A DNA stretch of 64,000 nucleotides from Bugula neritina (taxonomy: Eukaryota > Animalia > Bryozoa), in NCBI GenBank assembly GCA_964035545.1, contig OZ037768.1, positions 13,029,675 through 13,093,674 on the forward strand, written 5' to 3'. Positions 730 to 47,740 of the stretch are shown here, in pieces. The position numbers and the translations under genes are program-made. The notes under the pieces were generated by a model that was not told the DNA's origin, made no database searches, and saw only the letters and a program-made list of their open reading frames with translations. The first letter of the stretch is position 1. Each line of letters begins with the position of its first letter.

Positions 730-1828
730 CTGTAGTGAATTTTGCTCTTAACTATATTATATGTGGGTCAACTTAAACAAAGCCACTACACCAGGTTGTT
801 TACGCTAAGATAACTTCATTATTTACACGAATACAAGAAGGTTATTTACTGCTATTATGAATAGAAAACGATTACATAATTAATGAGCTTTAATACACAA
901 CTACTCTGAATGAAGTCCCAAGCTGCTCTGCCGGCTAGCTACTCAGCGCACTGCAACTACGAGTAGCTAGCTCCACCTGCTATCAATTAGTGTGTCTGTC
1001 CTGATTGATGGTTACTAGTGGTGCCACTGCTGTCCATAGCTACATGCCGATGTAGTCGAACTCACAATATAATAAACAGTATAGAGTGAACCTTTTCGAT
1101 TAATACCAATAATGATTGCACCACTAAAATCTATCACAGTATATAGTTTTACAGTAAGTGATTCCAATAGACAATGGACACCATCTTAGGATAGCTAAGG
1201 TTGGCTATTGTTGTGAGTTTTAGCACAATTATCAAGCGTGGATTGCCTGCGTATTTAGTTTCAATTTAACTAGCAACTACTAACAGAGCTTGCGTACGAT
1301 AACCTTTATTTAATTCGATAAACATAATTATAACAGTATGTCAAAACCACAATACATCAATCAATTATAACACGTCTTACTACTACGAGCCCCTGCTCTC
1401 AACACACATGGTTTCTGCTAGCTAACCCGCGAACAGTCACTTGACCGGAACCTTGCCTTCCGGTCCTTCTGATTGGATAGTAAAACATAGTTATAAGTAT
1501 TCCCATACAGGAGGGGACGAATCCATTATTATGCTACGTAATCCCATTACACCGCCCCCACCAGCAGAAAGACCTACTTTCTGATAAAAACAAAAATAGT
1601 ATAATAATGCAAAAATAACATAAGTCAAGAAAATCCACAAAGAGAAAGAAAAGAAATATCAAACGTACGACATATGTGATATACAAGTAAGATAACGAAT
1701 GGCCAGCGTACAACTGGCCAGCTATAAAGAGAGAGTCCTGGATCGTAGGTCATTAGTAGTCGAGCATTTACACGATCACAACAAAGTATCCTGGGAACAT
1801 GCGGGGTGGAATTGGCAACTGCCAGCTC

Positions 1829-2568
1829 CTATTTTTGCGGGGACTGGATCCGGTGTCGTGCCTGCCGTGCACGTAGCCTACGCTTTAGGCGTCCTACTGA
1901 GCCCTTCAATTCACTAAGACCCATTGTAGTACTGAGTAAGTCGGGTGCCAACTGGGTGAATTCATCCTGCAGCCGCAGGAGTTTTTCTTCGACGGTTGCT
2001 AGTCGGGTAGGCCTGGTTGGGGTTGGCGTCGCTTCTTCTGGAGAGTCTGATGCTTCCATGGCGGTATTGTCTAGCCGCGGTATGATCGCAGCGACCGTTT
2101 TCACCATAGGGGACTTCTGACGGGCGGCTGTTAGCAATGTATAAAATCTGGAGGATAATGCGGCCCAGGTTAAAGCCTTCTTAACCACTGGTTTGACCGC
2201 TTCTAGGTATTGGTCGTAGTTGTCCGCGTCTACTACATAGCCCTCACCCGCAAAACAGTCCATCATGTGAGCCAGGACAGGGTATGGGTACACGTCGTGA
2301 AATCTACACGGACAGAACCGTAGCAGGAAGTGTGCATTCACATGCAGCCGTAGTCCTTGGTGTGAGGGAAGCTCTTCGTAACACACATGGCAGGTATGTT
2401 GTGACCTACTCGGTCCCAAGGCTTCTTCAATTTGCGGCTCCGTTCGTCGCGACACCCATCTGTGTCTTCGACGCAGCACCGCGGGCAGTCCGTTGTCTGT
2501 TTCCAGTCCGTTATCCAAGGAGGAGAGAGAGTGTAGATTCTGTGACCTGTTGGTCGATCGAGTGTGAT
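1829..2568 (-). CDS. Accessory ORF of element B (two zinc fingers plus C-terminal coiled coil), probably exon 2 of a spliced transcript
   Basis: CHVC-x12-H-x3-H and CPC-x12-H-x3-C motifs. Heptad-like RLATVEEKLLRLQDEF...LSELKGSVGRLKRRL. Acceptor ...ctcttgcag at 2569. Frame open in B1 and B2. Confidence 0.75.
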
Positions 2569-2874
2569 CTGCAAGAGTATAACAGTGTAAGAGGGTACAC
2601 TGAGTACAACCGGCGTATACAGCCTGGTGGGTACTTAACTCAATTAAACACTCGTGAGACTCAGTTAATGAATAGTTGATGGAAAACACACACTGCTGTA
2701 ACGGACTGTTCAGTCTTAGAGTCAATGTGAATTCTCACCACTAAAAATCATTACCGAGTCTCCAGCTTACTCTATTATAGTTAAGCTGATTATTACAGTT
2801 TAGCCCTCGTACCAAAAACATAACTAACTCACCTCTCGATTCTTGGCAAGCCATTGTGAATGAGAGTGGTATGT

Positions 2875-4966
2875 TTATGATTTCAACGTGCGTCTACTCA
2901 AAGCTGTATTAATGTGATGAAAGAGCGAGCAGCGTGGTTGTGAAACGTGACTATGACTTATTACCTCCGGCGTATGAATCTTATTTGAATTTCTGCCGAG
3001 GCAAAAGTTGATATTTTCGTGGTGCTCACAACTCCCACGCTTTGCTCTCTTCCCCTCACGGCGTCTCGTAGGACGTTTGACCGCGCCCTGAACGGAACGT
3101 GGTAAGTCCTTGCGATACGCGGGGCCTGGCTTAGGACACCGTTTCCGAGGTGTCGTCACTAACCAAGGCGGTTTACGCACCCGTGGACGGTCACGTCTCA
3201 CAGGTGGTGCTTCCAGCCAATTTGTGACAAATGGAGCTTTCCCAGTACCTCCGCACGGAGCCCCTCCCTTAGGGGGTTTTTGCACTTCCAGGTCGGTTCC
3301 TGACCTGGGAAGTGGCGGTGGCGGCTTGCACGCTGACGGCGGTGAGCGCACTTCCCTGAACGGGTGTGGCTTTTCCTGCCTCGCCACTGCTTTGGGTTGC
3401 ATCCTAGGCGGTTTGTCGACCAGGTCAGCAGTCTCCGTCTGCCCGGGTCTTTCTGCACTTTGCCTTCGCCGCCCTACTTCGTCTGTAGGGGGGCCGTGCT
3501 TACTGACCCGGCAGACTCCGCACTGCCTAACTCTGCGTCGTACATCACGCTCCATGTGAGGCCAATACCACCAGAGTTGTAGTTCGGTGAACACCTGTTG
3601 GGCTCCCCCGTCAGCCTGCTGGTGTACCTCTTCTATCAACTCTCAGCGGATGGCGGCAGGACAGAGCATCCTCTCCTGGTCTGGCTGGTGGTGGTTATCG
3701 GCCAAAGATATGGTCAGTAGACCATCCGGCCCGATCCGCAGTGCGTTCCAGCGTCGGCAGTACAGCTGCCACTCGGCGCAGCCCTGCTTCCGTTGTCTGT
3801 CACTGGGTCGTCGCCCTTCCCGTTTCATTCGATAGACGTCGGCTACCACCCCCGGATTATGTTCCTGGACGTGTCCTAGCTCCTTGACGCCATCGGTGGA
3901 GACGGGTTCGGCGTGGGGGTCTTGTGCCACCTCTGGGGGCATGTCAGGGTCCCCAAGGTGAGGTGTAGCCTTGATTTTGTGTAGTGACGTGACCGTCTCT
4001 GGGCGCTGTTCGTCCATCTACGCAACCGTCTGATGTTCTCCCACGGGTCCCCTGGCTGTGGGGTGAGGCAGTCCTTCGCCCGGAGGGCGGGTTCTCTAGA
4101 GGACTTTTCATCGCGGTTTCCCGCGATGGCCTGCTGTTATCTTCTTGAACAGAAGGAGTACAGCTTGGTGGAGAGGTGGGTGGTAGGCTCACTGTCTCCG
4201 AGGGGGAGTGGAGGCATGGCACCGAGGTCTTTCCTTTCCGTGTCAGCTGTTTAGAGTTGTGGACAGGTGGGACCTTCGGGTGCGCGCTCTCTACAGCTCC
4301 CGGCTTGGAGGTACGGCCACTGTCTACCTGGTGGTGGACGGTGTCTCGGGAGTGGCCGGACATAGTACAGGCACGTACTATCGGCTCTTCTCCCGTTAGG
4401 GGATGGCCAAACTTATCGACACAGGCGAGCTCCCTGCCGCCCATAATCATCGCAGATTTACCAAAATCAATGCGACATCCGTGTCGTAAGAATGGCATCC
4501 CAAGGATGGCGTCCTCCTGGAGTTGTCCTACTATAAACCTCTCCTGGATGGTCTGGTCACAGACGCTCCCAGGGAGTTCAATGATACCGTAGAAGGGGAT
4601 GCACGACCCGTCTGCCAGGGTGCCATGATCGCCTTCATACCGTTCCAACCTGCTTCGGATCTGAGCACTGAGTGTGTCGAAGAATCGACGACCCAGGAGG
4701 TTGGTGGTACAGCCTGTGTCCAACAGATATCTGGCAGGTTTGCCGGCTATCTGTCCTGGTAGAAACAGGCTGCTCTCGTGGGGATGTAGTGGTATCTTGG
4801 GTGATCTCATCTCCCTCGCCTTGGCGGAGGGGTTAGGTTCTTGACGACGACTCGGGACCAGCTGCCGAGGGAGTGGCGCCGCGCCCTGCAGCGTTTGGGC
4901 ACCTTTCCTCGCAGACTCTGCGGTCCGTCGTTTGTCAAACCTGTTGCGGGGTGGCATTGAGAACAC
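2875..4966 (-). pseudogene. Reduced pol of B1: aspartic protease, RH-IN linker and integrase zinc-binding region, with frameshift and stop
   Basis: YLLDTGCTTNLLG protease motif. VVADVYRMKREGRRPS...WYWPHMERDVRRRVRQCGVC aligns with element A pol. RT, RNase H and IN core absent. Confidence 0.85.
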
Positions 4967-5072
4967 CGGCGGCGAGCGGCTTGTACAGCCTGCTTGCCGT
5001 CTTGGTGGCCGTTCCGCGAGGTCCCGGACGGGTGTCCGGCGTGGCGAACGCCACTGTGTCCTCCCTTGGGGT

Positions 5073-6002
5073 TTAACGGCGGCCCGCCGGATGTGGGAGC
5101 ATCTGCGGGCCGTTGTACTTTAACCCTGGTCGAAGTCGGGGACAGTGTTTCTGGAAGTGTCCTGGTCTTCCGCACCCCCAGCAGGAGGGGTGTCCTCTAC
5201 CAGGCAACTGCACCGGTGGCCCGTCAAGCTCACGGGTGGTGCCTAGCTGGCTTTCCAAGGCGGAGACCAGTTCAGCTAGCATGTCGGTCATTTGTGCGAC
5301 CTGTGATGCCACCGTCATCTGCGTCACCTTGGCCATCGCTGGAGTTTCCGCGTGAGAAGCGGTAGGAGCAGCAGAGGGCTCCATGTCCACCTGACGAGAA
5401 GTCACACGGCTCCGGTGCAGCTGGCTGGCCAGAAGGTAAGCCTCCCCTTCTGCCAGCGCACCTTCGACCGTGGTGACTCCCCTCGCCAAGAATTGGTGAT
5501 GGAGTCCCAAGTCGTTGATGGACTGCACGAAGGCATCATAGGTATACCTCTCACGGTTTACTTACGGCAGATCGCGAAACGCAATCTGCGCCAGTCTCAT
5601 AACCGTGGTAGCGTGCTATTGTAGCGGCGTGTGAGGATCACGCCGTAGTCTTTGAAGACGGGCCCGCGCATCCACAGCGGAGATACCAAAATGGGCCCGC
5701 AAGGAAGCAAAGATGCCGTCAATGTCTGGTCCCACTCCGTACGGCTTGGCTTTGTCTGACAGCGCCATCCTGAGCTTGAGCAATGCTATTCTAGGTGGCC
5801 ATTGTGCAACCTCCATTACATCTTTGAATTCCTGAACGAATTGCTCCACCGGCTCTTCACCTGAGAAGGTGGGTACCCTCAGCCGGTACTTCTCTTCGTA
5901 ACATTCCCTATGTACTCGCACTTCTGGTTCTATAGGTAAAGCAATGTTATCTTCCTCACCTTCATTCCTCCGAAGGGGTAGCTCTGTGCCTCTTTCTGTC
6001 AT
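5073..6002 (-). pseudogene. Gag of B1 with CCHC zinc knuckle, interrupted by a stop at 5616 and a frameshift
   Basis: PTFSGEEPVEQF and CWGCGRPGHFQKHC. Intact 306-aa version at 19551-20471. Confidence 0.85.
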
Positions 6003-7172
6003 CTTGAAATACGCGAAATCCCACCGCTGCCACCACTGTTGTGAGTTTTAGCACAATTATCAAGCGTGGATTGCCTGCGTATTTAGTTTCAATTTAACTA
6101 GCAACTACTAACAGAGCTTGCCTACAATAACCTTTATTTGATTCGATAAACATAATTATAACAGTATGTCAAAACCACAATACATCAATCAATTATAACA
6201 CGTCTTACTACTACGAGCCCCTGCTCTCAACACACATGGTTTCTGCTAGCTAACCCTCGAACAGTCACTTGACCGGAACCTTGCCTTCCGGTCCTTCTGA
6301 TTGGATAGTAAAACATAGTTATAAGTATTCCCATACAGGAGGGGACGAATCCATTATTATGCTACGTAAACCATTACACTATTTATTGTATCTTTATAAA
6401 CAGAAATAAAATTATTGTTGTTTGCTGAAGCACTGCTGAGTAAATTGCCTCACAACATTAAATCACTAGTATTTCTACAAGGTCAAATGTGCTTCCTATA
6501 TTAATGAAAAACGAAAAATGAGAGAAGTTGAACTTGGACAACTCAAACGTAGACATGCAAAATTTGTCAATCAATCCAAAGTTTCAAGTCAAAATAATGA
6601 TTCTAGCAAACCACCCAGTAAATAAAAATATTATACACCTCAAGGTATATGAGTAGAGTATTTTATTCATTTAGGCTAGATATACAAAAGGATGTTTGTA
6701 CTAAAAAAAAGACGCTGATAGACATAAGGGTCAAGTCAATACAATGGAATTTCTTCCCAAACATAAAGCAGAAGTAAGCTTAATTCTTGCATTATCTGTC
6801 ATAAAATCATCTACAGTCTTTTATTATCATCAAAATATTGCACTCTTCTAAGAGAATAAAGTTGGTGTAGCAGTGAATCTCAGTAAGTAAGATGAAAGTG
6901 TTGACTCAACTGCCAGAGCCTGTTGCACCCACAAGACTGCCAAAGCTGGTTTATAGTCTACTTTTATGTCACCAGCCAAAGGTGCATCATTGTTTGATAG
7001 CTTTGATAGAGATGACTTCCATATACAGGTTACTTCTGCTTATAATCAATTATAGTAATTTATTGAGTTAGCTATATAACTCATAAATAGCATTATTGTA
7101 GCTTCTAGATACAGTTTGAGATTGTATAGAGTTGTAATAGATTCAACATAATTTACTAGTTACTATAGTTTT

Positions 7173-12854
<5,682 letters not shown>

Positions 12855-13550
12855 TTTCGCAGTATAAGCATATTAACACTCAACATAATATTAAGACAAT
12901 AATGTTTTCAATAGAAATGTAGACTAATAATTATGATGTAAACAGTTTTTGTTGTGGGTAGTATTATGATTGTGATGTCATACAACAATGGTATTCCAAT
13001 TTAAATGTACCAAATATTTAAATTTACTATTACATCAACTTCAATATCTTATTATTAGGACTTATAAGCAACAATTGCGGGTTGTCCATATATACTATAT
13101 ATTTATAAGAACAATTGAGTACTATTTATACTCTATTTTCAGCATGTTTTTTATTTACTTATATATGGTTGTGCATGCAGTTCACCATTATACATCTTGA
13201 GTAAATTAGAATAGTTATAATTGTTTATTAGTAACTGTAATTATGAACGTCCCATTATTATTGGTCTCATAAAAAAATTCAATTATTTCGATACAACGTG
13301 CATGTACATAATACAGGAAAATTAATCAGTTTGTGAATAGAAGGGGTAAGGGGGGGGAGGAGGGGGGCATAACGGGGTGAAATTTGAGTTTTTCCTCTCA
13401 TTCGTCTGTTTTTCATGTTACTAGTTCAATAATCTCTAATCTAAATGCTACATCAGTTGTCTATTATTGGTATCAGTTGGTTGGTTGCTTCTATTTCTTT
13501 CACAACTAGTGAAATGCTCATGACGAAAAAATGGCCCATTGTACCCTGAT

Positions 13551-14510
13551 ACGGGGTACAATGGGCTACTGGGTGGGACCAGGAAAAGTCATGTTTTATC
13601 TGTACAGTTTGTGCCACCACAGATAGCAGGGGAGGCAAAATCAAACGCACATAACTCATTACTGTTTAAAACTAAAATTGTTTTTTTTTCTATTTCCACT
13701 TCACAGGAACTTTCATCGGAAAAAACCTTCACTAACATGTACTAAAAAGTTCCGAGCAGATTTTTTTTGTGAACTGTAGCTAAGGTGTATGGCTGAGGTT
13801 TGTGACTGGCGTGCAGAAGAAGGAGGGTGGGGGGAAATGAGCAAATCACAATTTATTTTAGTCAATTACATGTATATTTCCTCAATGATTTAATGTATAG
13901 TGAATACCATAACTATCCATTAGTAGCAAAAGCAGAGTGCTTGGTATGATGTATAAAATGGCAAATTGCTATAACCTCACCAGATGTATGTTAGGGGAGC
14001 TTTACCTTGCAGTTTGGTAGTCTTACTATGATGTCTTTGATATTTTACAAAAATGTCAGAAATGGCTATATCTATAGATTTTAATATTTGAACTATTTTT
14101 TTGGGCAAACAAACTAATAACAGTGATCATGGTGCAATAATCAGGTGGCCAATTGTGGCCCAATCAGCATGGCCAAGTGGCCAAGTTGAAAATAAATGTG
14201 GCTCAAGGAAAATTTATTTTAGAGTTTGCTATCATACTGGTTAAGCAATGTAGAGACAAGCAATGGTAACAATATCAGTAAAATCTAGGCTCGTTACTTT
14301 TGAGTGCAAAAATTTACCAAGGTTTAGCGACATCTTAAAAAATTTTATGTAAAAACAGTTTTTGACTTGCCTCTTCAACATGTATGCTCCACGAGTGTTG
14401 AAACTGCAATGGCTGAATAATTATGTCAATACCACTTTTTTTATTAAAAAAAATCACAATTCTAATAAGTCAATAAGTTCTCACAATTTGATCGGCTTTT
14501 TGTACCCCTA
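13551..14510. mobile_element. Degenerate DNA transposon remnant (possibly pogo/Tigger-like) upstream of each ankyrin gene
   Basis: Ends GGGGTACAA..TTGTACCCC near TA dinucleotides. Weak MPKK.. ORF in the other copies (32972-33166, 53070-53267). Confidence 0.3.
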
Positions 14511-15430
14511 CGACTGTTGTACTCCCCTCTCCCTACTATTAAATTTTAATAACCCGTGAGAGAGAGTTATTTTCTCTCTACTATATTGACTGCTCTTACG
14601 AATCTGAAATTAAATTAAATTCTGTAAACCAACTTCAAACTTATGTCAGACTGCACTGGCTAGTCAGAAAGATACTTTATAATATTTCAGTTGCCTTATT
14701 AGAATTGGAAGCCATTAATGTACCCCATGTAGTGCGGAGTAACTGTTACTCCTTGCTTTACTATTTTTAAATGAAAACCTGAAATATCGCTTTTCTTCCT
14801 TCTTTATATTAATCTTCGAATCTCAGTTCTGATATAAATAAATTTTTCCGTTGCTGGTGCAAGCAGTTAACTGGTCAGATTGGTTGTTGGCAAATATTGA
14901 GAAACGAGGCTTTTGAAAATATATTAAAATATATTTGTTTATTTTTTCCAACTGTCTCGGAATTAGTGCCACACTACTGAATTATTGATTAATACAAAAT
15001 AAAAACATTTCCTAATCAATTTGCTTTAAAAATGATGGCTTAACATAAGCTACAACCTCTACATTTCAATTTTGAATCATTGAAATAAAACACGTTTTAA
15101 CGTGTTAAGTTAAAATGAGGATCAACGTTGTGCAAAATAAAAGGACATAACACCCATTTACCACATAAAATATATCCCAAGATGCATTGGCAGGACAGAC
15201 AGTCCAAGATAAAAGTGCACTACATTAAAACATTATATAACATGCTGAGTAAGAGGTAGAAACAGATAACAGACACTTTTAGTTAGTTACCTAACATCAA
15301 TATTCTAGATTATCATAACACAAAGTAAACTAACTATTAAGACAGTACATATAAACAGTAATTGTCAGATTAGTATATACTTATGTAAACTAGAGTCTAA
15401 CTAGAATATTTAATGAACCGTATCAGGGAG

Positions 15431-15581
15431 TTACGTCTCCTTTGCTTTAGACATGTCCAGTCTGTACTGGTTTCTGCTGAAAAAATCCTTGAAACTTGAT
15501 GCGTATCGATTCTTCACAACAGCCAAAGTTGTCAACAGATTACCAGAACCAAGTTAAAGAAATGCCACTCAAAAATGGTAC
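15431..15581 (-). pseudogene. Duplicated TMEM120 last exon, frameshifted (151 vs 153 bp)
   Basis: Copy of 54580-54732 with two single-base deletions. Confidence 0.85.
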
Positions 15582-15739
15582 CTGAAGTATACAATATACA
15601 CGAATTTTACAAATGATCAAATGCTCTGCATTGCATACAACTAGGTTGCAAGATATTTGTCTTTGTTTATCGCATAATAGTCGATAAACATCTAATAAGA
15701 AATATTAGAGAAAAAGCTCTAGGTTACAATAAGATTGGT

Positions 15740-15790: not shown

Positions 15791-16572
15791 TGCCGATGTA
15801 GTCGAACTCACAATATAATAAACAGTATAGAATGAACCTTTTCGATTAATACCAATGATGATTGCACCACTAAAATCTATCACAGTATATAGTTTTACAG
15901 TAAGTGATTCCAATAGACAATGGACACCGTCTTAGGATAGCTAAGGTTGGCTATTGTTGTGAGTTTTAGCACAATCATCAAGCGTGGATTGCCGGTATTT
16001 AGTTTCAATTTAACTAGCAACTACTAACAGAGCTTGTGTACGATAACCTTTATTTAATTCGATAAACATAATTATAACAGTATGTCAAAACCACAATACA
16101 TCAATCAATTATAACACGTCTTACTACTACGAGCCCCTGCTCTCAACACACATGGTTTCTGCTAGCTAACCCGCGAACAGTCACTTGACCGGAACCTTGC
16201 CTTCCGGTCCTTCTGATTGGATAGTAAAACATAGTTATAAGTATTCCCATACAGGAGGGGACGAATCCATTATTATACTACGTAATCCCATTACACCGCC
16301 CCCACCAGCAGAAAGACCTACTTTCTGATGAAAACAAAAATAGTATAATAATGCAAAAATAACATAAGTCAAGAAAATCCACAAAGAGAAAGAAAAGAAA
16401 TATCAAACATACGACATATGTGATATACAAGTAAGATAACGAATGGCCAGCGTACAACTGGCCAGCTATAAAGAGAGAGTCCTGGATCGTAGGTCATTAG
16501 TAGTCGAGCATTTACACGATCACAACAAAGTATCCCGGGAACATGCGGGGTGGAATTGCCAACTGCCAGCTC

Positions 16573-17312
16573 CTATTTTTGCGGGGACTGGATCCGGTGT
16601 CGTGCCTGCCGTGCATGTAGCCTACGCTTTAGGCGTCCTACTGAGCCCTTCAATTCACTAAGACCCATTGTAGTACTGAGTAAGTCGGGGGCCAACTGGA
16701 TGAATTCATCCTGCAGCCGCAGGAGTTTTTCTTCGACGGTTGCTAGTCGGGTAGGCCTGGTTGGGGTTGGCGTCGCTTCTTCTGGAGATTCTGATGCTTC
16801 CATGGGGGTATTGTCTGGCCGCGGTATGATTGCAGCGACCGTTTTCACCATAGGGGACTTCTGACGGGTGGCTGTTAGCAATGTATAAAATCCGGAGGAT
16901 AATGCGGCCCAGGTTAAAGCCTTCTTAACCACTGGTTTGACCGCTTCTAGGTATTGGTCGTAGTTGTCCGCGTCTACTACATAGCCCTCGCCCGCGAAAC
17001 AGTCCATCATGTGAGCCAGGACAGGGTGTGGGTACACGTCGTGAAATCTACACGGACAGAACCGTAGCAGAAAGTGTGCATTCACATGCAGCCGTAGTCC
17101 TTGGTGTGAGGGAAGCTCTTCGTAACACACATGGCAGGTATGTTGTGACCTACTCGGTCCCAAGGCTTCTTCAATTTGCGGCTCCGTTCGTCGCGACACC
17201 CATCTGTGTCTTCGACGCAGCACCGCGGGCGGTCCGTTGTCCGTTTCCGGTCCGTTATCCAAGGAGGAGAGAGAGTGTAGATCCTGTGACCTGTTGGTCG
17301 ATCGAGTATGAT
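16573..17312 (-). CDS. Accessory zinc-finger/coiled-coil ORF of B2
   Basis: Same length and frame as in B1. Acceptor conserved at 17313. Confidence 0.75.
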
Positions 17313-17617
17313 CTGCAAGAGTATAACAGTGTAAGAGGGTACACTGAGTACAACCGGCGTATACAGCCTGGTGGGTACTTAACTCAATTAGACACTCGTG
17401 AGACTCAGTTAATGAATAGTTGATGGAAAACACACACTGCTGTAACGGACTGTTCAGTCTTAGAGTCAATGTGAATTCTCACCACTAAAAATTATTACCG
17501 AGTCCCAGCTTACTCTATTATAGTTAAGCTGATTAATACAGTTTAGCCCTCGTACCAAAAACATAACTAACTCACCTCTCAATTCTTGGCAAGCCATTGT
17601 GAATGAGAGTGGTATGC

Positions 17618-19653
17618 TTATGATTTCCACGTACGTTTACTCAAAGCTGTATTAATGTGATGAAAGAGCGAGCAGCGTGGTTGTGAAACGTGACTATGAC
17701 TTATTACCTCCGACGTATAAATCTTATTTGAATTTCCGCCGAGGCAAAAGTTGATATTTTCGTGGTGCTCACAACTCCCACGCTCTGCTCTCTTCCCCTC
17801 ACGACGCCTCGTAGGGCGTTTGACCGCGCCCTGAACGGAACGTGGTAAGTCCTTGCGATACGCGGGGCCTGGCTTAGGACACCGTTTCCGAGGTGTCGTC
17901 ACTAACCAAGGCGGTTTACGCACCCGTGGACGGTCACGTCTCACAGGTGGTGCTTCCAGCCAATTTGTGACAAATGGAGCTTTCCCAGTACCTCCGCACG
18001 GAGCCCCTCCCTTGGGGGGTTTTTGCACTTCCAGGTCGGTTCCTGACCTAGGAAGTGGCGGTGGCGGCTTGCACGCTGACGGCGGTGAGCGCACTTCCCA
18101 GAACGGGTGTGGCTTTTTCTGCCTCGCCACTGCTTTGGGTTGCATCCTAGGCGGTTTGTCGACCAGGTCAGCAGTCTCCGTCTGCCCGAGTCTTTCTGCA
18201 CTTTGCCTTCGCCACCCTACTTCGTCAGTATGGGGGCCGTGCTTACTGACCCGGCAGACTCCGCACTGCCCAACTCTGCGTCGTACATCACGCTCCATGT
18301 GAGGCCAATACCACCAGAGTTGTAGTTCGGTGAACACCTGTTGGGCTCCCCCGTCAGCCTGCTGGTGTACCTCTTCTATCAACTCTCGGCAGATGGCGGC
18401 AGGACAGAGGGTCCTCTCCTGGTCTGGCTGGTGGTGGTTATCGGCCAAAAATATGGTCAGTAGACCATCCGGCCCGATCCGCAGTGCGTTCCAACGTCGG
18501 CAGTACAGCTGCCACTCGGCGCAGCCCTGCTTCCGTTGTCTGTCACTGGGTTGTCACCCTTCCCGTTTCATTTAATAGACGTCGGCTACACCCCCGGAAT
18601 ATGTTCCTGGAGGTATCCTAGCTCCTTAACGCCATCGGTTGAGACGGGTTCGGCGTGGGGGTCCTGTGCCACCTCTGGGGGCATGTCAGGGTCCCCAAGG
18701 TGAGGTGTAGCCTCAGTTTTGTGTAGTGACGTGACCGTCTCTGGGCGCTGTTCGTCATCTACGCAACCGTCTGATGTTCTATCTTGGGTCCCCTAGCTGT
18801 GGGGTGAGGCAGTCCTTCGCCCGGAGGGCGGGTTCTCTAGAGGACTTTTCATCGCGGTTTCCCGTGATGGCCTGCTGTTATCTTCTTGAACAGAAGGAGT
18901 ACAGCTTGGTGGAGAGGTGGGTGGTAGGCTCACTGTCTCCGAGGGGGAGTGGAGGCATGGCACCGAGGTCTTTCCTTTCCGTGTCAGCTGGTTAGAACTG
19001 CAGACAGGTGGGACCTTCGGGTGCGCGCTCTCTACAGCTCCCGGCTTGGAGGTACGGCCACCGTCTACCTGGTGGTGGACGGTGTCCCGGGAGTGGCCGG
19101 GCATAGTACAGGCACGTACTATCGGCTCTTCTCCCGTTAGAGGATGGCCAAACTTATCGACACAGGCGAGCTCCCTGCCGCCCATAATCATCGCAGATTT
19201 ACCAAAATCAATGCGCCATCCGTGTCGTTGTAAGAATGGCATCCCAAGGATGGGGTCCTCCTGGAGTTGTCCTACTATGAACCTCTCCTGGATGGTCTGG
19301 TCACAGACGCTCCCAGGGAGTTCAATGATACCATAGAAGGGGATGCACGACCCGTCTGCCAGGGTGCCATGATCGCCTTCATACCGTTCCAACTCTGCGG
19401 TCCGTCGTTTGTCAAACCTGTTGCGGGGTGGCATTGAGAACACCGGCGGCGAGCGGCTTGTACAGCCTGCTTGCCATCCTGGTGGTCGTTCCGCGAGGTC
19501 TCGGACGGGTGTCCGGCGTGGTAGACGCCACTGTGTCCTCCCTTGAGGTTTTAACGGCGGCCCGCCGGATGTGGGAGCATCTGCAGGCCGTCGTACTTTA
19601 GCCCTGGTTGAAGTCGGGGACAGTGTTTCTGGAAGTGTCCTGGTCTTCCGCAC
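17618..19653 (-). pseudogene. Reduced pol of B2 (protease remnant, linker, integrase zinc-binding region)
   Basis: ORFs 18793-19653 and 17618-18448, homologous to B1 and element A pol. Confidence 0.8.
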
Positions 19654-20471
19654 CCCCAGCAGGAGGGGTGTCCTCTACCAGGCGACCGCACCGGTGGCCC
19701 GTCAAGCTCACGGGTGGTGCCTAGCTGGCTTTCCAAGGCGGAGACCAGTTCGGCTAGCATGTCAGTCATTTGTGCGACCTGTGATGCCACCGTCATCTGC
19801 GTCACCTTGGCCACCGCTGGAATTTCCGCGTGAGAAGCGGTAAGAGCAGCAGAGGGCTCCATGTCCACCTGGCGAGAAGTCACACGGCTCCGCTGCAGCT
19901 GGCTGGCCAGAAGGTAAGCCTCCCCTTCTGCCAGCGCACCTTCGACCGCGGTGACTCCCCTCGCCAAGAGTTGGTGATGGAGTCCCAAGTCGTTGATGGA
20001 CTGCACGAAGGCATCATAGGCATACCTCTCACGGTTTACTTGCGGCAGATCGCGGAACGCAATCTGCGCCAGTCTCATAACCGTGGTAGCGTGCTCTTGT
20101 AGCGGCGTGTGAGGATCACGCCGTAGTCTTTGAAGACGGGCCCGCGCATCCACAGCGGAGATACCAAAACGGGCCCGCAAGGAAGCAAAGATGCCGTCAA
20201 TGTCTGGTCCCACTCCGTACGGTTTGGCTTTGTCTGACAGCGCCATCCTGAGCTTGAGCAATGCTATTCTAGGTGGCCATTGTGCAACCTCCATTACATC
20301 TTTGAATTCCTGAACGAATTGCTCCACCGGCTCTTCACCTGAGAAGGTGGGTACCCTCAGCCGGTACTTCTCTTTGTAACATTCCCTATGTACTCGCACT
20401 TCTGGTTCTATAGGTATATCTTCCTCACCTTCATTCCTCTGAAGGGGTAGCTCTGTGCCTCTTTCTGTCAT
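19551..20471 (-). CDS. Intact Gag of B2 (306 aa, CCHC knuckle)
   Basis: Uninterrupted ORF starting just after the PBS. CWGCGRPGHFQKHC. Confidence 0.9.
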   Translation of the reverse strand: MTERGTELPLQRNEGEEDIPIEPEVRVHRECYKEKYRLRVPTFSGEEPVEQFVQEFKDVMEVAQWPPRIALLKLRMALSDKAKPYGVGPDIDGIFASLRARFGISAVDARARLQRLRRDPHTPLQEHATTVMRLAQIAFRDLPQVNRERYAYDAFVQSINDLGLHHQLLARGVTAVEGALAEGEAYLLASQLQRSRVTSRQVDMEPSAALTASHAEIPAVAKVTQMTVASQVAQMTDMLAELVSALESQLGTTRELDGPPVRSPGRGHPSCWGCGRPGHFQKHCPRLQPGLKYDGLQMLPHPAGRR

Positions 20472-21179
20472 CTTGAAATACGCGAAATCCCACCGCTGCC
20501 ACCACTGTTGTGAGTTTTAGCACAATTATTCAGCGTGGATTGCCTGCGTATTTAGTTTCAATTTAACTAGCAACTACTAACAGAGCTTGCTTACGATAAC
20601 CTTTATTTAATTCGATAAACATAATTATAACAGTATGTCAAAACCACAATACATCAATTAATTATAACACATCTTACTACTACGAGCCCCTGTTCTCAAC
20701 ACACATGGTTTTGCTAGCTAACCCGCGAACAGTCACTTGACCAGAACCTTGCCTTCCGGTCCTTCTGATTGGATAGTAAAACATAGTTATAAGTATTTCC
20801 ATACAGGAGGGGACGAATCCATTATTATACTACGTAATCCCTTTACACTATTTATTGTATCTTTATAAACAGAAATAAAATTATTGTTGTTTGCTGAAGC
20901 ACTGCTGAGTAAATTGCCTCACAACATTAATTCACTAGTATTTCTACAAGGTCAAATGTGCTTCCTATATTAATGAAAAACGAAAAATGAGAGAAGTTGA
21001 ACTTGGACAACTCAAACGTAGACATGCAAAATTTGTCAATCAATCCAAAGTTTCCAGTCAAAATAATGATTCTAGCAAACCACCCAGTAAATAAAAATAT
21101 TATACACCTCAAGGTATATGAGTAGAGTATTTTATTCATTTAGGCTAGATATACAAAAGGATGTTTGTACTAAAAAGAA

Positions 21180-23400: not shown

Positions 23401-25437
23401 GCTGCATAAAAACCATAATCTATCAAACAAAGGTCAACAATAATAGCAATGCAGCAACGGAAACATATCTGGATCATTTTACTTAATTTAGTACACACTG
23501 GAAATCTCCAGTTTTTAGCTATTTTTACAATTTAGCTGCTAATGAACATGGGTTTTTGCCCAAAACTAGTAAAATATAAATGAATGCACACCTAGATAAT
23601 TAAGGTTCTTCTTAATTTTGCTTGATTTCCTTAATTTTTTTTTTTAATCATTCAGCTCCTTTTGATTTTGGAGAGTTTTTTTTTCCTAACACTCTGCAAA
23701 AAATCTTTCTATATCAAGACTTTGTGCTGCTTCTGAATTTGCAAACTCTAAAATTGTAGATCTACTCATGCTAGAGTTATTGAGTAAAACAAGTATAAAT
23801 TATGAGCACATAATATTGTAGCCTACAATATACGTAGCATCAATTATTAACTATAGCTGTCTATAAACAATAATATTTTGTCAGATATGAAAGTAGGTTG
23901 CTTCGTTTTTAAATTCTACACGGAATATAAATTTATAGATTGCAAAACACTATATTTTTCTTATTCAAAATGAAGTTTTCAATAGAAACGCATGTCCGCT
24001 ATATAATATAATCATGACACATAATAACACTTGACAGAAGCATACGTAATAATTACATAAAAGAAGCTAGTTATGTAAGATAGAAAGTATTTTATGTGAA
24101 CGAGTCAAAGAATTAAATATTTAAAAGCAATATCATGGATGCATACATGTTGAAATCTTTTTAGCATCTTTTAACTCAGTCTTCTGTTGATTTGACAGTA
24201 ATCTTTAAATGTAATATCTGCAATTAAGGAAGGAGATAATAGCAAAGCTTAGAGTTTTTCTTTTGAAAAAATTATAGCTGAGCCAAACAAATTTTAACTT
24301 CCAAGTGATTATTAAAATAAATAGTACAAATAGTATGCATTTTAACCAAGAACATTGTTTCAGAAATATCGTTTATATAATATATTGTTAAATTTAAGTC
24401 TGTTGGTAAATGTTAACGGACACATAACAAAACTAGCCACTAGGATTACTTGTTTTATTGGTTTAGTTTGACAAATACTGTATTTTGCCGTTATGTTTTT
24501 GGATAGAATTTCACTAAATAGATTGACATTATATGCTATACACAAATAATATTATACAACTACTTTCTTTGAGGAAGCAACTCCCAAGTTTCCTTACAAA
24601 TTCTTATATGCTGGTTACTACCAACACACTTAGAGGATCCTATATTATGTATCAAGTCAAGATGTGTCAAGCAGAGAGTTTTTAATAATTCAAATGACTT
24701 TTGTCAAAGTAACAAAGTAATTAACGTTTGACAACTTAAACAACACAGACAAATTAATTCTAATAACTTCTCGTTAGAAAAAGTATGCTAATAGTTTTTA
24801 AAACTTTCTGTCACTAATGGCTGTTTGGCAAGTTTCTATAATAATCATATTTATTCATAACTGGTTTGTGGTAAAATGTATAATCAGTGTGGTTGACTAT
24901 GCTTATCAACATTACATGCACCAGGGATTTATGTGGAATACTTAATCAACAACAAAGTATGTTTTGGTGTACACTTTACATGTGTGTATTGAACGAGAAA
25001 AATAACTTTACCCCCAAATATATTGGCATAGAATATTGCACACTAAATTGCTGCTCTATAACATACAAGTGTAATTACACAAAATCGCTTGCGATAGACA
25101 AATATAGGTTGTATGTTGGAGCAAGCAGTATACACTCAACAAGTATTTAGAAATAAACATTAGGTAGGCACGTGAAAATAATTTAAAATTAGGATGTTTT
25201 AGTAATTTTACGCTAGTCTAATATAGTTTTAAAGCTCCTGATGTTGAAGAATAAAAATCAAATTAACAACATGATGGCTGGAAAAAGCATTGAGGTCTAA
25301 AGCATTGAATAAAGCACACTTCATTTCAAATAACAAAAGCTAGTTCGAGAGCTAAGGACTTATTCTTCCAATACAACATAATAATAATGATAATAATAAT
25401 TTTATATAGTCTTCTGTAGTTTTTATACAATAGTTTT

Positions 25438-26872
25438 TCAAATTTCAGAAGGCAGAAGTATTTTCCCTTTCGCTTTTGAGATCAAAGCAAAGTGTTTATA
25501 CACCTTTGATGTTACAATTCTTGTGAATTTCATTTCTTCTATTCTGTCCAAAGTCTCAAAGCCTAAAAAACACATAATACATAGGCCTATTACATTTATT
25601 TTGCATAAATTTTTTTTTGTGATGCTTTCATAAAATTCAACAACTTAGTATTTCGATCTAAGTAAAATTAAAATAAAATAAAAAACAAAACTATAAAACA
25701 GAAATTTTTTTACAGGATAACAGTAACTCAAAATTAGCAAAATCATAGATTAAGGACCAAGGTTACTTGCCATAGAGGCTCTCATTTCCTGTTTGTAGCA
25801 CATCATTGGTCAACTGCTTATGTTCCTGCCATGTTACACCATCGTTACTTCTGAGAACAATGGTTTCCTGTTCATCTTGACTAGCAGCAACATCTATTAT
25901 GACAGGGCTGAAAAGAAAAAGCACAGGTGCCATTTTTAAAAGCGATCACATTTTTGGTATGCACTGTGTTTGAATAAAAATGTAATAAATTTAATGAAAA
26001 CATGAAAAAGTAATAAAAATGGAAGAAAAAATTGTTTTCTTTCCTACAAAACTAAATGAATGAAAGCTTACCCAATAAAGGTGGCACAAGCAGGTTCTAG
26101 AGAGAGAATAGGGAAGACGAGTGTTTCGCCGTTTGGAAGAGAGGGCATCACTCCTTTCTCAAGGAAACGGCACACAATTCTCGTTGGTGCGGTTGCCACA
26201 CCGGCTGGAATAAAAAATCGGACTTTCTCTCTGCATCCCTGGAAATATCCTCCTCTGGCGTCAACCAGAAAACTCATGCGGAATCTAAAGTGAGCAGCAT
26301 ATAATATGTCAACACAGTTAATAATTAAGTAGCTAGTAATTCATTTATGTGTGTGTGCGTGCGTGAGTGCATGTGTGTGTGTGTGTTTTATTGCAGTAGC
26401 AGTTTTCCTACATATAAAAATGCTTCTACTTCAACTATTAAAACAAACCCAATAAAACCGAAGTCATGTTTGGCAACAGTTTTAACTGCAACAATTCTTC
26501 CAAGTTAGTTATCATTACCTTTTCAATTTGAGCTCCTCACTACAAATAAAAAAAAACTGATTTTATATAACAAATTTACAAAATGTCTTCCGTAAGCTGC
26601 TTTTGAACTACATACAGCCAAAGAATGAGAAACATGCTCATTGCATTTCTTGTCTATATGATATATAGAAAAAATATGTCAAATTGGTTCATATATAGTT
26701 GGGTACATATACTAAACGTACTCGGTATTTCCAAGGTTTTCATTTTTCAATGAATTGTCAGAGTTTAAATCCTTCTGAGAATGAGGTGCGCTGTGGGCCT
26801 CCTTACAAGTCTTTCTCTTTTTCGGTGTAAAGACACTCTTGCAGTTCAAACCTAGAATGAATAGAATACATC

Positions 26873-26904
<32 letters not shown>

Positions 26905-29900
26905 CTGTGTGCCGTGCGTGCGTGTGTGAGTGTGTGTTTGTGTGTGTGAGTGTGTGTTTGTGTGAGTGTGTGTTTGTGTGAGTGTGTGTTTGTGTGAGTG
27001 TGTGTGTCTGTGTGCCGTGCGTGCGTGTGTGAGTGTGTGTTTGTGTGTGAGTGTGTGTTTGTGTGAGTGTGCGTGTGTCTTTGCTTGCGCGCGCGTGTGT
27101 GTGTGTCTGTGTGCCGTGCGTGCGTGCGTGTGTGTGTCTGTGCTTGCGTGTGTGAGTCTCTGCATGTGCAGGTACGTAAGGAATTGATACTGTATCAATT
27201 ATGAATATTGACTGCTGTATAGATTATATATATTTACATGTTTTGAGGGTAAAGATATTGCTGGTAATTAACTAGGCCTCTAACTATGCGCTCGTGAAAT
27301 AAAATTAGCTGTGGGTTTTACCATTATGCATAGCTATAAATTAATAATAATCAATTCGAAAAATCCCCAACAATTTAATACTGCAAATAATTGCCAGTAT
27401 GAAAAACAGTAATTGGTGAGTTTTTATTACCAGCAGAGGCGACGCTGCGTAAAGCCCGCCTGATTTTCGATGTACGAGGTTTTGTCTTAACGCTCTGCAT
27501 GCCATACACCTACAAGGAAATTATTGCATTGCTATTGTACAATCACACTAAATATACGTTTTCATGGATAGACACTTCAATAGGCGTTTATAATATACAC
27601 AATAATGATATAATGTACTGCAAACACACTAACTCAATTCTCCTAATGTTGTGACCAACTTACCAAGTGAACAGTGCCTAACTACAGAACCAGTAACTAT
27701 AAAAGGTCTTAAATAAACAGAATAATTGAAAAGTTATTATCCTTTTGGCAGTTACATTGATTTACATAAAATTACCGTCTTGTATATCTAAATGCTTAGC
27801 GAAACATGGCCGATTTCTAGTAAATTACTCCAAATATTTTAAAGCTCTATCTAAGTTCAGTTGGTATCTGTAACTTTCATTGATGTTATATTTACCAGGT
27901 AGCTGACTCAATGAATCACTAATTGACCAAAAACAGAACTGACATGCATTGGAAAAACGCTTATATCAAAATGAGTAAAAATGATGCACTTTTAGCTTGT
28001 GACTTAGAAATAGACTGTGATCCAGATAAACACTAGACAGAGCCAGATTGACTACTGATTTCCTCACATGTGCAATCAGCTTGTGAGACAAAGTTTAAAA
28101 ATGGTTTGATCAAATCATTGACTAATGGCCCAGAAGATGCTGTAGCAATGTTTTGCTGACACAAATTTAAATGTCAGACTAAGTCAATGTGAACACAAAA
28201 TTAACACACAATCAAATATGTTTAGTCCAATATAAGTTGCAATATTGAATACTACAATGTTATGATTCTAATATCAAACTGTAGATGATTTATTAACAGA
28301 TAATGTAAGGGCAATGTCTACTTCTGCTTCATGTTTTGACATAGATTTCACAATATTTACCTGACCACTATGTCTCTCAGCTTTAGAAGTTGTAGGGAGA
28401 CTAGCACCATACTTCAAGAGAATCTCTGCTGTGAGAGCATGGTTTTTCTGCCTGCACAGGTGCATTGGGGTTAATCCGTCCTAAAATATACCATAGCAGT
28501 AGCAACTCAATCAAATATTCAATATTCAATACTCAAATAATATTTAAGAAGAAAAGCTTTCAATTTTATGTTTTCCACTTCATGATAAGGGTCATAGTTC
28601 ACGATAATAATCAGTTGGTATAACAGTTGCAGTTGTAACATTAAGGGCACAGTTTGTGTTGTTACATTATTTTGGTAACTTGGAGTTATCTTTTTTTATA
28701 TTTGTAGTTTCTCAACTTATGAGCTGATTTAAAATAAAAGTTAACTTCCTCTTTGACAGATTCAGGACCTTGATTTAAATCATTTATAAATAAAAACTAA
28801 TCAACTATTAATCACTTATAAAATAGATATCTGTTGAATAAAAAAATACCTAATGGAAGTTTGAATAAAGAAACTTAGAACAGCAAATGTTGAGATAGTA
28901 TGCTGCCGCACTGGCAGTTGATCACAAAAAGTAACTGTAACATCGCTAGCTGTTTGGAATTGTAAACTTACTTTGGTATAGCAGTTGGGGCTAGCACCAT
29001 TTTCCAACAGCATCGATACAATATCACTGAGTCCATCCCTGGCAGCAAGGTGTAGGGGGGTGAACCCATTTTCCGACTCTGCGCTTACTCCTGCGCCATA
29101 TTCAATCAGAGCACAGACCGTATCCATGTCACCTTTTCCCACAGCATAATGTAGAGGCGTGTAGCCATTCTGTAAACACAATTACTAGTAGCCATTTAGT
29201 AGACTTTATGATTCATCAGAGATTAGAATAAAGAATATAATTAACAAGATGTAAGCACTTTTACTAACATTATAGTGAGTGTTCTTAGATTTGAGAAAAT
29301 ATGACAATTCCACTTCTAGGTTATGTAGTTCAACAGTAAGCAGAACATAAACATGGCCATTTACAATGTAGGTAATTTTTAACCATTAAAAGTAATATTG
29401 TTATGTTTTCCAGAATTAGGGTTGATATGCAATCCAGAGAGTCTAATTACTTGCTATAGAACTGCACCAGGATAAGTCGAGTGAACGAGTATATATTTTA
29501 AACACAATAATACATTACAAAAACGATACAAATACATCTGACAATTTACACATTTAGACTATTCAGCACTCTAACTTCGACTGACTAACAGCGGGAAAAC
29601 TATTATTGCTGCTAAATATCAAACCCGCTAATTGGCTATCAATTGTTCCGGGTCAATTACGCGACCTTGTATGCTGTGCTGCTGGTAGCTCCACGAGCCA
29701 CCACAATATAATGAAGCTAACGTACATTAATTAAACAGACTCCAAAATGTTCATAATTTTGCTGAGCTATCACAAACTAGGCAGAAAAATTCTCACCTTA
29801 GCCCTGCTGTCAGGGGAGACACCATATTTCTCCAGCAGAAGTAAAACTATTGCAGCTTGACCATGCTGAGCAGCTAGGTGCAGAGCTGTATGTCCATCAT

Positions 29901-31254
29901 CATTTTTGAGTTCAGGCTTTGCGCCTTTTTGGAGTAACATTCGAGTTACTGCCTGTTGATTGTTTCCTATGCTGACATGGAGAGGTGTCATTCCATTCTA
30001 CAAGCATCAGCATGCACTGTGTACATTGTAACTCAAAATACTTTAGGAGAAAATTATACAACTACATCAGAAGTGAATTTCAGAAGAACATTTATTACCA
30101 GTTCTAATCAACATACACAACTATTTGTTTTTCTCAAGTGGAGGCACTGAATACACTAAATTGTTACCTTAGTCACAGAATGGAATAGTTTTGAATGTTT
30201 TGGAAATGAACTTATCACATTTTCATTTCCGTCTTTTGCTGCTACATGCAGCAGGGAATAGTTATCTCTAACCTCAGCATTCACATCAAATTCATGCTGC
30301 AACAGAAGCAGTACACTATCTACACTACTCACCACTTCAACTCTTGTTGTTACATAATAAACAAACACTATTTGTATAGCTATACAGGTTTCTTAAAGCA
30401 AAGCACCATTTCTGAAATAGTCAACCAGGAACTTCAAGTCCAATCAACTTAAAACTAAATGTAATTTAAGTGAAAGTCATTGCAGTGTAGTTCTACAGTT
30501 ACTCCTAACTCTTTAAGTTGAGTGTGTGCTTACTGAAGATGGGTCTTCATTGTCCAGAGAAGAGGGTGTATGTAGTTGACTACTACTGATCTCACTGTGA
30601 TCAATAGATAGTTCCTCACTGTCAACCTCTATTTCAGATTCACTAGCTCGGCAACATACTAGAAGTGGCAAAACTGTCATGTATATAAACTCAGATATAT
30701 TCATTTTACAATCTGATTCAAAGAGGTCCATGGGATTTGAATACCAATATCAAATACACCATTAGCCGATATCTTAACTTTATGCCTAGATTCTAGTTAC
30801 TAATTTTACTGTATCCATTTGCCCAAAACAAAATAGTAGGTCAAAAAAAAATACTGTGATTTTGGTTCATTTTCATCTAATGGGATTATATTCACAAGGT
30901 TGATGGAGATTTTTACTGTGTGCAAACACTTGAAAGAAAATATTTAAACTTCTGCCAGATTGGCTATAATGATGGCAAGATGATATGGTCAATTTTCCAA
31001 ATAGTGATGCAGGCAGCTTTACTTAGCCAAGCTGATAAGGATATGACAAACATTCATATGATGCAGCTACAATAAGAGTGTACATACATGTAACTCATTA
31101 ATATATTTATATTGGTACAAAATCAGCTAAACCCAAGTGACTAAGATATAAAATATTGTAGTTAGACAAGTTTGCAAATTATTTAGCTTTTCATGCAAAA
31201 CTTACCCAAATTGGTGATTGAGGCCCAAAATCTTCTGAATAATTCTAATATCAT
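25438..31254 (-). CDS. Ankyrin plus ZU5 mini-ankyrin gene, copy 2
   Basis: All exons of copy 1 present with splice sites. Exon 6 is 27 bp longer (YGASLPTTSKAERHS). Confidence 0.75.
29399..29705. mobile_element. ~307-bp insertion unique to unit 2 (solo-LTR-like)
   Basis: Absent at the homologous sites near 11222 and 50169. TG..CA ends flanked by ATAT. Confidence 0.65.
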
Positions 31255-31640: not shown

Positions 31641-31811
<171 letters not shown>

Positions 31812-31986: not shown

Positions 31987-32066
<80 letters not shown>

Positions 32067-42762: not shown

Positions 42763-44457
42763 TGTTATGAGTTTTAGCACAATTATCAAGCGTGGATTGC
42801 CTGCGTATTTAGTTTCAATTTAACTAGCAACTACTAACAGAGCTTGCGTACGATAACCTTTATTTAATTCGATAAACATAATTATAACAGTATGTCAAAA
42901 CCACAATACATCAATCAATTATAACACGTCTTACTACTACGAGCCCCTGCTCTCAACACACATGGTTTCTGCTAGCTAACCCGCAAACAGTCACTTGACC
43001 AGAACCTTGCCTTCCGGTCCTTCTGATTGGATAGTAAAACATAGTTATAAGTATTCCCATACAGGAGGGGACGAATCCATTATTATACTACGTAATCCCA
43101 TTACACCGCCCCCACCAGCAGAAAGCCCTACTTTCTGATAAAAACAAAAATAGTATAATAATGCAAAAATAACATAAGTCAAGAAAATCCACAAAGAGAA
43201 AGAAAAGAAATATCAAACGTACGACATATGTGATATACAAGTAAGATAACGAATGGCCAGCGTACAACTAGCCAGCTATAAAGAGAGAGTCCTGGATTGT
43301 AGGTCATTAGTAGTCGAGCATTTACACGATCACAACAAAGTATCCCGGGAACATGCGGGGTGGAATTGCCAACTGCCAGCTCCTATTTTTGCAGGGACTG
43401 GATCCGGTGTCGTGCCTGCCGTGCACGTAGCCTACGCTTTAGGCGTCCTACTGAGCCCTTCAATTCACTAAGACCCATTGTAGTACTGAGTAAGTCGGGG
43501 GCCAACTGGGTGAATTCATCCTGCAGCCGCAGGAGTCTTTCTTCGACGGTTGCAAGTCGGGTAGGCCTGGTTGGGGTTGGCGTCGCTTCTTCTGGAGAGT
43601 CTGATGCTTCCATGGAGGTATTGTCTAGCCGCGGTATGATTGCAGCGACCGTTTTCACCATAGGGGACTTCTGACGGGCGGCTGTTAGCAATGTATAAAA
43701 TCCGGAGGATAATGCGGCCCAGATTAAAGCCTTCTTAACCACTGGTTTGACCGCTTCTAGGTATTGGTCGTAGTTGTCCGCGTCTACTACATAGCCCTCG
43801 CCTGCGAAACAGTCCATCATGTGAGCCAGGACAGGGTATGGGTACACGTCGTGAAATCTACACGGACAGAACCGTAGCAGGAAGTGTGCATTCACATGCA
43901 GCCGTAGTCCTTGGTGTGAGGGAAGCTCTTCGTAACACACATGCATGGCAGGTATGTTGTGACCTACTCGGTCCCAAGGCTTCTTCAATTTGCGGCTCCG
44001 TTCGTCGCGACACCCATCTGTGTCTTCGACGCAGCACCGCGGGCAGTCCGTTGTCCGTTTCCAGTCCGTTATCCAAGGAAGAGAGAGAGTGTAGATCCTG
44101 TGACCTGTTGGTCGATCGAGTGTGATCTGCAAGAGTATAACAGTGTAAGAGGGTACACTGAGTACAACCGGCGTATACAGCCTGGTGGGTACTTAACTCA
44201 ATTAGACACTCGTGAGACTCAGTTAATGAATAGTTGATGGAAAACACACACTGCTGTAACGGACTGTTCAGTCTTAGAGTCAATGTGAATTCTCACCACT
44301 AAAAATCATTACCAAGTCTCCAGGTTACTCTATTATAGTTAAGCTGATTAATACAGTTTAGCCCTCGTACCAAAAACATAACTAACTCAACTCTCGATTC
44401 TTGGCAAGCCATTGTGAATGAGAGTGGTATGTTTATGATTTCTACGTACGTCTACTC
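42763..44457 (-). mobile_element. Element B copy 3, truncated (3' LTR plus accessory ORF only)
   Basis: LTR 42763-43105 after CTAT. Accessory ORF has a 4-bp duplication frameshift near 43941. Ends at a deletion junction. Confidence 0.9.

Positions 44458-47704: not shown

Positions 47705-47740
<36 letters not shown>

Follow-up and report, generated by a model that had tools for sequence, protein, structure and literature searches.

A predicted spliced gene with a double zinc finger in a non-autonomous Ty3/gypsy element of the bryozoan Bugula neritina

The Ty3/gypsy retrotransposon Cer1 of C. elegans encodes CERV, a spliced product that starts with the N-terminus of Gag and is required for the export of the genome RNA (PMC10309623). 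CERV has 517 amino acid residues, 5 exons within the gag region and a candidate C4 finger, and is reported to lack homologs outside the nematodes. Long terminal repeat (LTR) elements of bdelloid rotifers have a non-env third open reading frame (ORF) after pol, which is typically expressed from spliced messages (PMC5408684). Here we analysed a stretch of 64,000 nucleotides of Bugula neritina DNA, called the window below (assembly GCA_964035545.1, contig OZ037768.1, positions 13,029,675 to 13,093,674 of the forward strand), in which the LTR element B1 carries a third ORF, termed ORF3, between a pol remnant and the polypurine tract. The window also contains two further copies of the element, B2 and B3, and a related element, A. 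B1 and all its features lie on the minus strand.

The predicted ORF3 product would resemble CERV in being spliced, with a Gag-derived N-terminus (here predicted, and seen in one relative, the protein P0003), a Cys-based finger, a leucine zipper or coil, a candidate nuclear signal and no signal peptide (PMC10309623). CERV differs by its H, M and G-protein-like G domains (PMC10309623), and the AlphaFold model of ORF3 leaves no room for a G domain. ORF3 in turn differs from CERV by its length of 260 residues, an exon placed after pol, a C2H2 and a C2HC finger, and an element without a reverse transcriptase (RT). With the rotifer proteins, ORF3 shares the coiled-coil (CC) type, and the non-autonomous rotifer element TelKA2n also keeps its ORF3 (PMC5408684). 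The rotifer proteins are, in contrast, env-like, transmembrane (TM), CC, GDSL esterase or DEDDy nuclease proteins, and the main text of that paper contains no "zinc finger", "Zn finger" or "C2H2" (PMC5408684).

An earlier sequence-only reading of the locus had taken the env genes of errantiviruses as the precedent. This holds only for the predicted splice layout: errantiviral env-F is reached by a subgenomic splice to a 3' exon, with the donor of the idefix subclade lying inside gag, and no export protein appears in the errantivirus passages of that source (PMC12992720). CERV and the rotifer non-env ORF3s are the closer precedents. The same reading had ruled out that ORF3 is Env, and we agree. 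No transmembrane segment was found (top 19-residue hydropathy 0.76, leader mean -1.46), and unlike the errantiviral Env the protein has no signal peptide, fusion peptide or membrane anchor and is modelled as a soluble finger domain with a helix. Bryozoan env-bearing elements have been reported as gag-env-pol with a gB-type Env (PMC12992720; PMC13524379), and the main text of a survey that covers gypsy elements with env across metazoans, bryozoans included, mentions neither "zinc finger" nor "C2H2" (PMC13524379).

More distant cases were also compared. The additional ORFs of plant LTR elements are common, and the nuclear ones discussed in the source are antisense (PMC7264820). They (PMC7264820) and HIV Rev are like ORF3 in being small spliced or extra genes with a proposed or demonstrated nuclear action and an Arg-rich stretch. 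ORF3 has no homology to Rev or to the plant ORFs. Rev itself is devoid of zinc fingers. In Drosophila MDG1, unspliced short ORFs (sORFs) are located upstream of gag (10.1101/2025.03.14.642691), and bryozoan repeat libraries are described as scarce in a bryozoan genome paper (PMC13326412). In the full-text literature, a search that left Repbase, Dfam, GyDB, supplements and most subscription papers outside, no zinc-finger ORF3 of this kind was described. Taken together, spliced non-Env third ORFs are already known, and what is new here is an unnamed double-zinc-finger domain in a probable gene of this type.

ORF3 is found at 1829..2568 and comprises 246 codons from the junction codon. It follows an acceptor at 2569|2568, and the frame is open until the stop at 1829-1831. 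Splice sites were ranked with an approximate scoring matrix among the 280 GT and 347 AG sites of the element. The acceptor ranked 2 of 347. Donor 1 at 5960|5959 ranked 2 of 280 and was the sole site with a score above 2 between 6036 and 5900. It is in phase 1 and terminates the Gag start with its 14-codon leader (5960..6002), 43 nt from the gag ATG at 6002, so that the predicted spliced product has 14 + 246 = 260 residues. This splice had been proposed in the sequence-only reading, and every coordinate, the phase and the length check on the minus strand; the strength that it had ascribed to both sites agrees with their ranks.

The best support for the Gag-leader splice is P0003, known here from its protein sequence alone. 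P0003 has 261 residues, is 75% identical to the window protein and originates from a JGI/IMG contig of 5,320 nt. Its residues 1-14 are identical to the Gag leader at 10 of 14 positions, and from residue 15 onward it corresponds to the exon from the junction codon, an exact fused junction. No other protein among the 216 collected had more than 7 of 14 matches to the leader. In other JGI relatives, some of them on longer contigs, the start is a local Met or Val codon, or the sequence continues across the acceptor. The gene caller may therefore have been intron-blind and the P0003 junction contiguous, originating from cDNA or from reverse-transcribed spliced RNA. At the acceptor position, 25 of the 27 relatives caught by a pattern have the residues F/L, S/L and D/G (the exceptions being P0003 and one false capture), and these residues would fit a pyrimidine tract with a YAG acceptor. 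The junction motif was in frame in 26 of the 45 relatives that extend upstream of an internal Met, mostly 37-38 residues ahead of a conserved Trp, and was missing from one long relative. The contigs of sequencing run X1, which are short and of a kind not on record, showed no 5960-2568 joint. The metagenome, viral and genome contigs scanned contained no relative, and the contig of P0003 was not met among them.

Several observations weigh against this splice. P0003 is a single protein, its contig is about one element long, and an intron-aware prediction could have produced it; no shorter proteins with the junction turned up when they were searched for. In the window, no ATG precedes the fingers, as the sequence-only reading had stated: the ORF opens with TTG, and the nearest in-frame ATG is 302 nt downstream of the acceptor, beyond the last but one of the eight zinc ligands. 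This is, however, a trait of the subfamily only, since a Met occupies the TTG residue in 55 of 60 relatives and in 41 of the 45 where this residue is internal. Because this Met precedes the fingers, the Gag leader is unnecessary as a source of the start codon in most relatives. On balance, ORF3 is very probably made from a spliced RNA that joins the Gag leader to the 3' exon, as predicted from the sites and the P0003 junction.

The sequence-only reading had overlooked a second in-phase first exon with its own donor. Donor 2 at 2833|2832 ranked 1 of 280, is in phase 1 and ends a candidate alternative exon of 7 predicted codons (2833..2903), whose acceptor at 2903 ranked 3 of 347. The ATG of this exon at 2854 has an A at -3 and a G at +4 and is located 22 nt ahead of the donor. 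Between donor 2 and the ORF3 acceptor is an AT-rich candidate intron of 264 nt (2569..2832) with a GC content of 0.40, compared to 0.53 and 0.60 for the coding sequence on either side, which terminates in a pyrimidine tract and the acceptor 2569|2568. Donor 2 is retained in B2 and absent from B3. If splicing placed the 2903-2833 exon directly after the Gag leader, the frame of the leader would meet a stop inside the exon, before the ATG at 2854. Two first exons are therefore possible. The exon 2854-2833 and, in most relatives, the internal Met would give shorter N-termini.

A gene made mainly from such a local start, whether the exon at 2854-2833 driven by an internal promoter or the internal Met, would leave the Gag-leader splice minor or incidental. 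This explanation draws on the top rank, phase, ATG context and intron of donor 2, and on the Met in 55 of 60 relatives, which is kept despite an N-terminal region of 33% identity. It also draws on element A, where, after pol, a perfect donor is separated from a strong acceptor by about 240 nt with AT-rich sequence (36380-36620, minus strand); this pair resembles the 2832-2569 pair of B, and no finger-domain homolog follows it. We nevertheless regard the local start as a rather unlikely main source, as the sole fused protein found carries the Gag leader and the 7-codon leader is absent from the N-termini of the relatives listed. The start of P0015 beside donor 2 was weighed as support for this donor and set aside as ambiguous.

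The conservation of ORF3 was then examined among its relatives. A search with ORF3 gave 107 relatives with 49-92% identity, a profile search gave 132 (120 among the matches listed), and a 50%-cluster library gave 74 matches, including about 30 at 24-37% identity. Of 203 proteins collected, 87 had the complete set of 8 zinc ligands, some at identities as low as about 25%; many of the others are fragments. For the 55 protein-spanning relatives among 134 close ones, the mean identity amounted to 0.62 for the finger domain, 0.76 for the coil and 0.32 for the linker, and the N-terminal 24 residues had a mean of 0.33 (n=32). This domain-wise conservation was seen among subfamilies that are 50-90% identical.

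Selection was assessed with the variants of run X1. In ORF3, 22 of the 35 variants listed were synonymous compared to 11.6 expected by random placement (P 0.0003), whereas the other two frames gave 5 and 9. No stop occurred among the variants, and the sole indel within the exon had 3 nt. Among the 24 polymorphic variants 16 were synonymous (7.9 expected). Two points count against the test: the 11 near-fixed variants, with 6 synonymous for 3.7 expected (P 0.12), are not significant alone, and the variants come from contigs of one run with many copies and linked sites, so that they are non-independent. Judged from this variation and the conservation pattern, ORF3 is a real gene kept under purifying selection.

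A captured fragment of a host gene that hitch-hikes without function, with splice-like sites arising by chance, could explain the host-like homologs in Watersipora and Bugula, the many truncated or frameshifted database copies, and the 7 synonymous and 11 non-synonymous codon differences between B1 and B2. Such decay of dead copies is, however, expected after insertion, and the synonymous excess among the copies, the domain-wise conservation and the exact junction of P0003 make this explanation very improbable.

Among 30 clusters looked up, the only named true relatives were uncharacterised proteins of Watersipora subatra and Bugula neritina. In XP_067940964.1 and XP_067944745.1 of W. subatra and KAF6037488.1 of B. 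neritina, the double-finger domain recurs with its 8 ligands complete, at about 28-32% identity; XP_067940964.1 has two such domains. The C-terminal coil is common to ORF3, XP_067940964.1 and the Bugula cluster. The 60-residue upstream part of the Bugula model did not match the Gag N-terminus of element A. In a tree, the window's family was grouped at 100/98, with the deeper order of host and element sequences unresolved; the count of its 'Watersipora' group, which disregards rows without labels, was left aside. The element probably has this domain in common with a family of bryozoan host genes or acquired it from them. An Ostrinia ZNF555-like protein (P0192) was set aside as a generic multi-finger match. 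In P0076, P0107 and P0148 the finger ORF is fused to post-integrase or protease pieces (P0107 by eye only), suggesting an origin by internal deletion within related elements. In P0141/P0201 and P0191 the finger domain is tandemly doubled ahead of the coil. For P0141, the source is an annotated gene of Watersipora, placed on a contig of chromosome scale.

The sequence-only reading had described a C2H2 finger, a C-x-C-x12-H-x3-C finger and a heptad-like C-terminus, and all three are present. The double-zinc-finger domain of about 125 residues (2120..2497) consists of a W..T..I motif, the C2H2 and C-x-C-x12-H-x3-C fingers, a VD motif and two helices, with the zinc ligands encoded at 2255-2392. 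The C-terminal helix (1835..2005) has 57 residues with a heptad repeat and a basic end; the last 25 residues include 10 K/R and no D/E. A heptad-like C-terminal stretch was found in 12 of 24 distant relatives when at least 6 of 8 core positions had to be hydrophobic, a count made with no control run. AlphaFold, which the sequence-only reading had suggested as a check, gave a confident model with a diverse alignment (mean pLDDT 83, domain blocks 79-98), in which about 21-155 forms a compact domain, followed by a loose linker and then by a helix at 189-245. Foldseek against PDB and BFVD yielded no match at E 0.001, and a wide search was dominated by coiled coils, so that it barely probed the domain. 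An earlier model made with alignment A2 had a pLDDT of 58 and its fold search was blank.

The window ORF matched no Pfam and no NCBIfam family, and the cut-off of zf-C2H2_4 was reached by 1 of 32 relatives. The double-zinc-finger domain is thus unnamed and absent from both collections. In the relatives the second finger reads C-x-C-x12-H-x3-5-C, and the linker between the fingers is hydrophobic and not TGEKP-like. The finger helix is hydrophobic at position +6, and both fingers are inside one compact predicted domain. The ORF3 fingers therefore do not qualify as a Kruppel-type C2H2 DNA-binding array. Compared with what is typical of zinc fingers, these finger details would suit a module that binds RNA or protein better than an array that reads DNA. 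A profile search of PDB sequences matched single C2H2 fingers only (SALL3, HIC2, ZBTB; best E 1e-6). ESM Atlas returned unnamed clusters and generic C2H2 rows and was unused as evidence.

The same spliced gene might encode a transcription or chromatin factor, whose fingers bind the LTR or the silencing machinery and activate or de-silence the element in a Tat/Tas-like or anti-silencing manner. Finger 1 is of the C2H2 type with its profile matches to SALL3, HIC2 and ZBTB fingers, and an acidic or low-complexity N-terminus with a coil and a basic tail is reminiscent of a transcription factor, a layout that bryozoan host genes have as well. The weak structural neighbours (E about 1) are DNA-binding C2H2 proteins, including BCL11A and Kaiso, which also counts against an RNA-directed function. 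On the other hand, there are only two fingers, the second is atypical, +6 and the linker are hydrophobic, the PDB matches span one finger, and no fold match reached E 0.001. We consider such a factor possible but doubtful. The sequence-only reading had named a transactivator, an anti-silencing factor and a helper-hijacking adaptor as candidate roles for a putatively nucleic-acid-binding, oligomerising protein.

The whole of B1 extends from 1209 to 6378 and has paired LTRs, a target duplication, a primer-binding site and a polypurine tract. The 5' LTR (TG...CA, 6037..6378) is identical to the 3' LTR (1209..1551) in 338 of 345 columns, and a 4-bp target duplication (CTAT) flanks the element at 6379-6382 and 1205-1208. 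The primer-binding site (6018..6035), which is putatively of the tRNA-Leu type, is identical in element A, and the polypurine tract is at 1552..1562. The gag region with a CCHC knuckle (5073..6002) has 2 in-frame stops in B1 and is open in B2. It is followed by an aspartyl protease region (4112..4846) and an integrase remnant with the H2C2 zinc-binding part (3406..3945). In comparison with element A, the gag, protease and N-terminal integrase parts matched at 37-51% identity, and no RT, RNase H or integrase C-terminal match was found. Since these are absent, B1 could not transpose by itself. By this gene content, B1 is a non-autonomous Ty3/gypsy LTR retrotransposon, as the sequence-only reading had proposed.

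Element A is a gypsy element with the order gag-PR-RT-RH-IN at 1-990 and 35880-42545 on the minus strand and carries stops, frameshifts and the primer site of B; a second copy runs past the start of the window. No relative of its RT was found among the viral contigs. Element A is a possible candidate for the helper lineage of B. With a helper in mind, the ORF3 protein could be a cytoplasmic adaptor that ties the element RNA to Gag or to helper Pol in particle assembly, so that the RT-less element competes for the helper enzymes. ORF3 is selected in a family whose window copies have no RT, its coil is the most conserved part in close relatives (0.76), and element A has the primer site of B and matches its Gag, protease and integrase at 37-51%. 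The common Gag leader, however, is only a variable stretch of 14 residues that precedes the conserved part of the capsid, there are apparent host genes among the distant relatives, and the basic tail suits nuclear import. We regard an adaptor as unlikely.

Our preferred function for ORF3, which we put forward tentatively, is that its protein may act in the nucleus on its own unspliced RNA and promote export for Gag synthesis and packaging. As a strong donor closely follows the Gag start and the 3' acceptor is strong as well, the RNA would be spliced by default and the ORF3 protein would be made, while unspliced RNA would still be required for Gag and for packaging. The coil would hold the protein together and the basic tail would send it to the nucleus, where it would bind the intron-containing RNA and tip the balance toward the unspliced form, a feedback switch comparable to CERV of Cer1 or HIV Rev. 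The element would borrow RT and integrase from a helper, for example element A, and would still need to export its own genome RNA, which would explain why the gene was kept while pol was lost.

A number of results do not favour this export switch. The simple leucine-rich export-signal pattern had one match, inside finger 1, and none in the tail, and the structure of the 3' untranslated region was not unusual (z -0.44). Neither CERV nor Rev could be linked to ORF3 by sequence or fold, in searches that did not include a direct comparison with the CERV sequence. Element A as the nearest possible helper is without a homolog of the domain. The splice layout by itself demands no export protein because errantiviruses use it for env.

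B2 (15955..20848, minus strand) has the donor 20429|20428, the acceptor 17313|17312 and an open ORF, whereas B3 (42763..44457, minus strand) is 5'-truncated, its ORF is frameshifted by 4 nt and donor 2 is lost. B1 and B2 have both flanks and the CTAT target duplication in common, and B3 shares the 3' flank, showing that the three are a single insertion spread by segmental duplication. The sequence-only reading was right that the sites and frame are intact in B2. As the same insertion, however, B2 gives neither independent support nor evidence of selection. The 7 synonymous and 11 non-synonymous codon differences between the ORFs of B1 and B2 show no clear constraint, and a weak signal among the window copies is expected for decay following insertion. 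A piece of the protease region, about 260 nt in length, is present in B1 and missing from B2 (B1 4654-4914; B2 region 19398-19392). A block of 18-20 kb is present in triplicate with 91-98% identity (7161-15739, 23650-35184 and 44462-55280). It contains exons with ankyrin repeats as well as long microsatellites of CA and TA, and LTR elements are located at the block junctions. Within the 3' region of element A, an inverted LTR with a purine tract (35496-35880, plus strand) is 70% like the LTR of B and keeps a short hairpin (arms of 7 bp) immediately upstream of this tract; the inverted LTR adjoins a third, different LTR at about 35184-35455.

How intron-containing LTR retrotransposon RNA leaves the nucleus and what non-Env ORFs do are mostly open questions, and CERV is the one protein-based export case found in the literature searched. 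As a speculative history, a bryozoan gypsy lineage may have co-opted a host double-zinc-finger/coiled-coil module and spliced it to the Gag start as an independently evolved Rev-like export switch. RT-less parasites would then have dropped pol and kept the regulator, and the spliced RNA would sometimes have been reverse-transcribed into intronless copies, which is one reading of P0003. Since ORF3 is kept by an RT-less element, it would serve the element's own RNA or expression, whatever its exact job. The ORF3 protein is compact (260 residues), confidently modelled and selected, has a defined predicted splice and has host relatives in sequenced bryozoans, and its origin and function are therefore directly testable.

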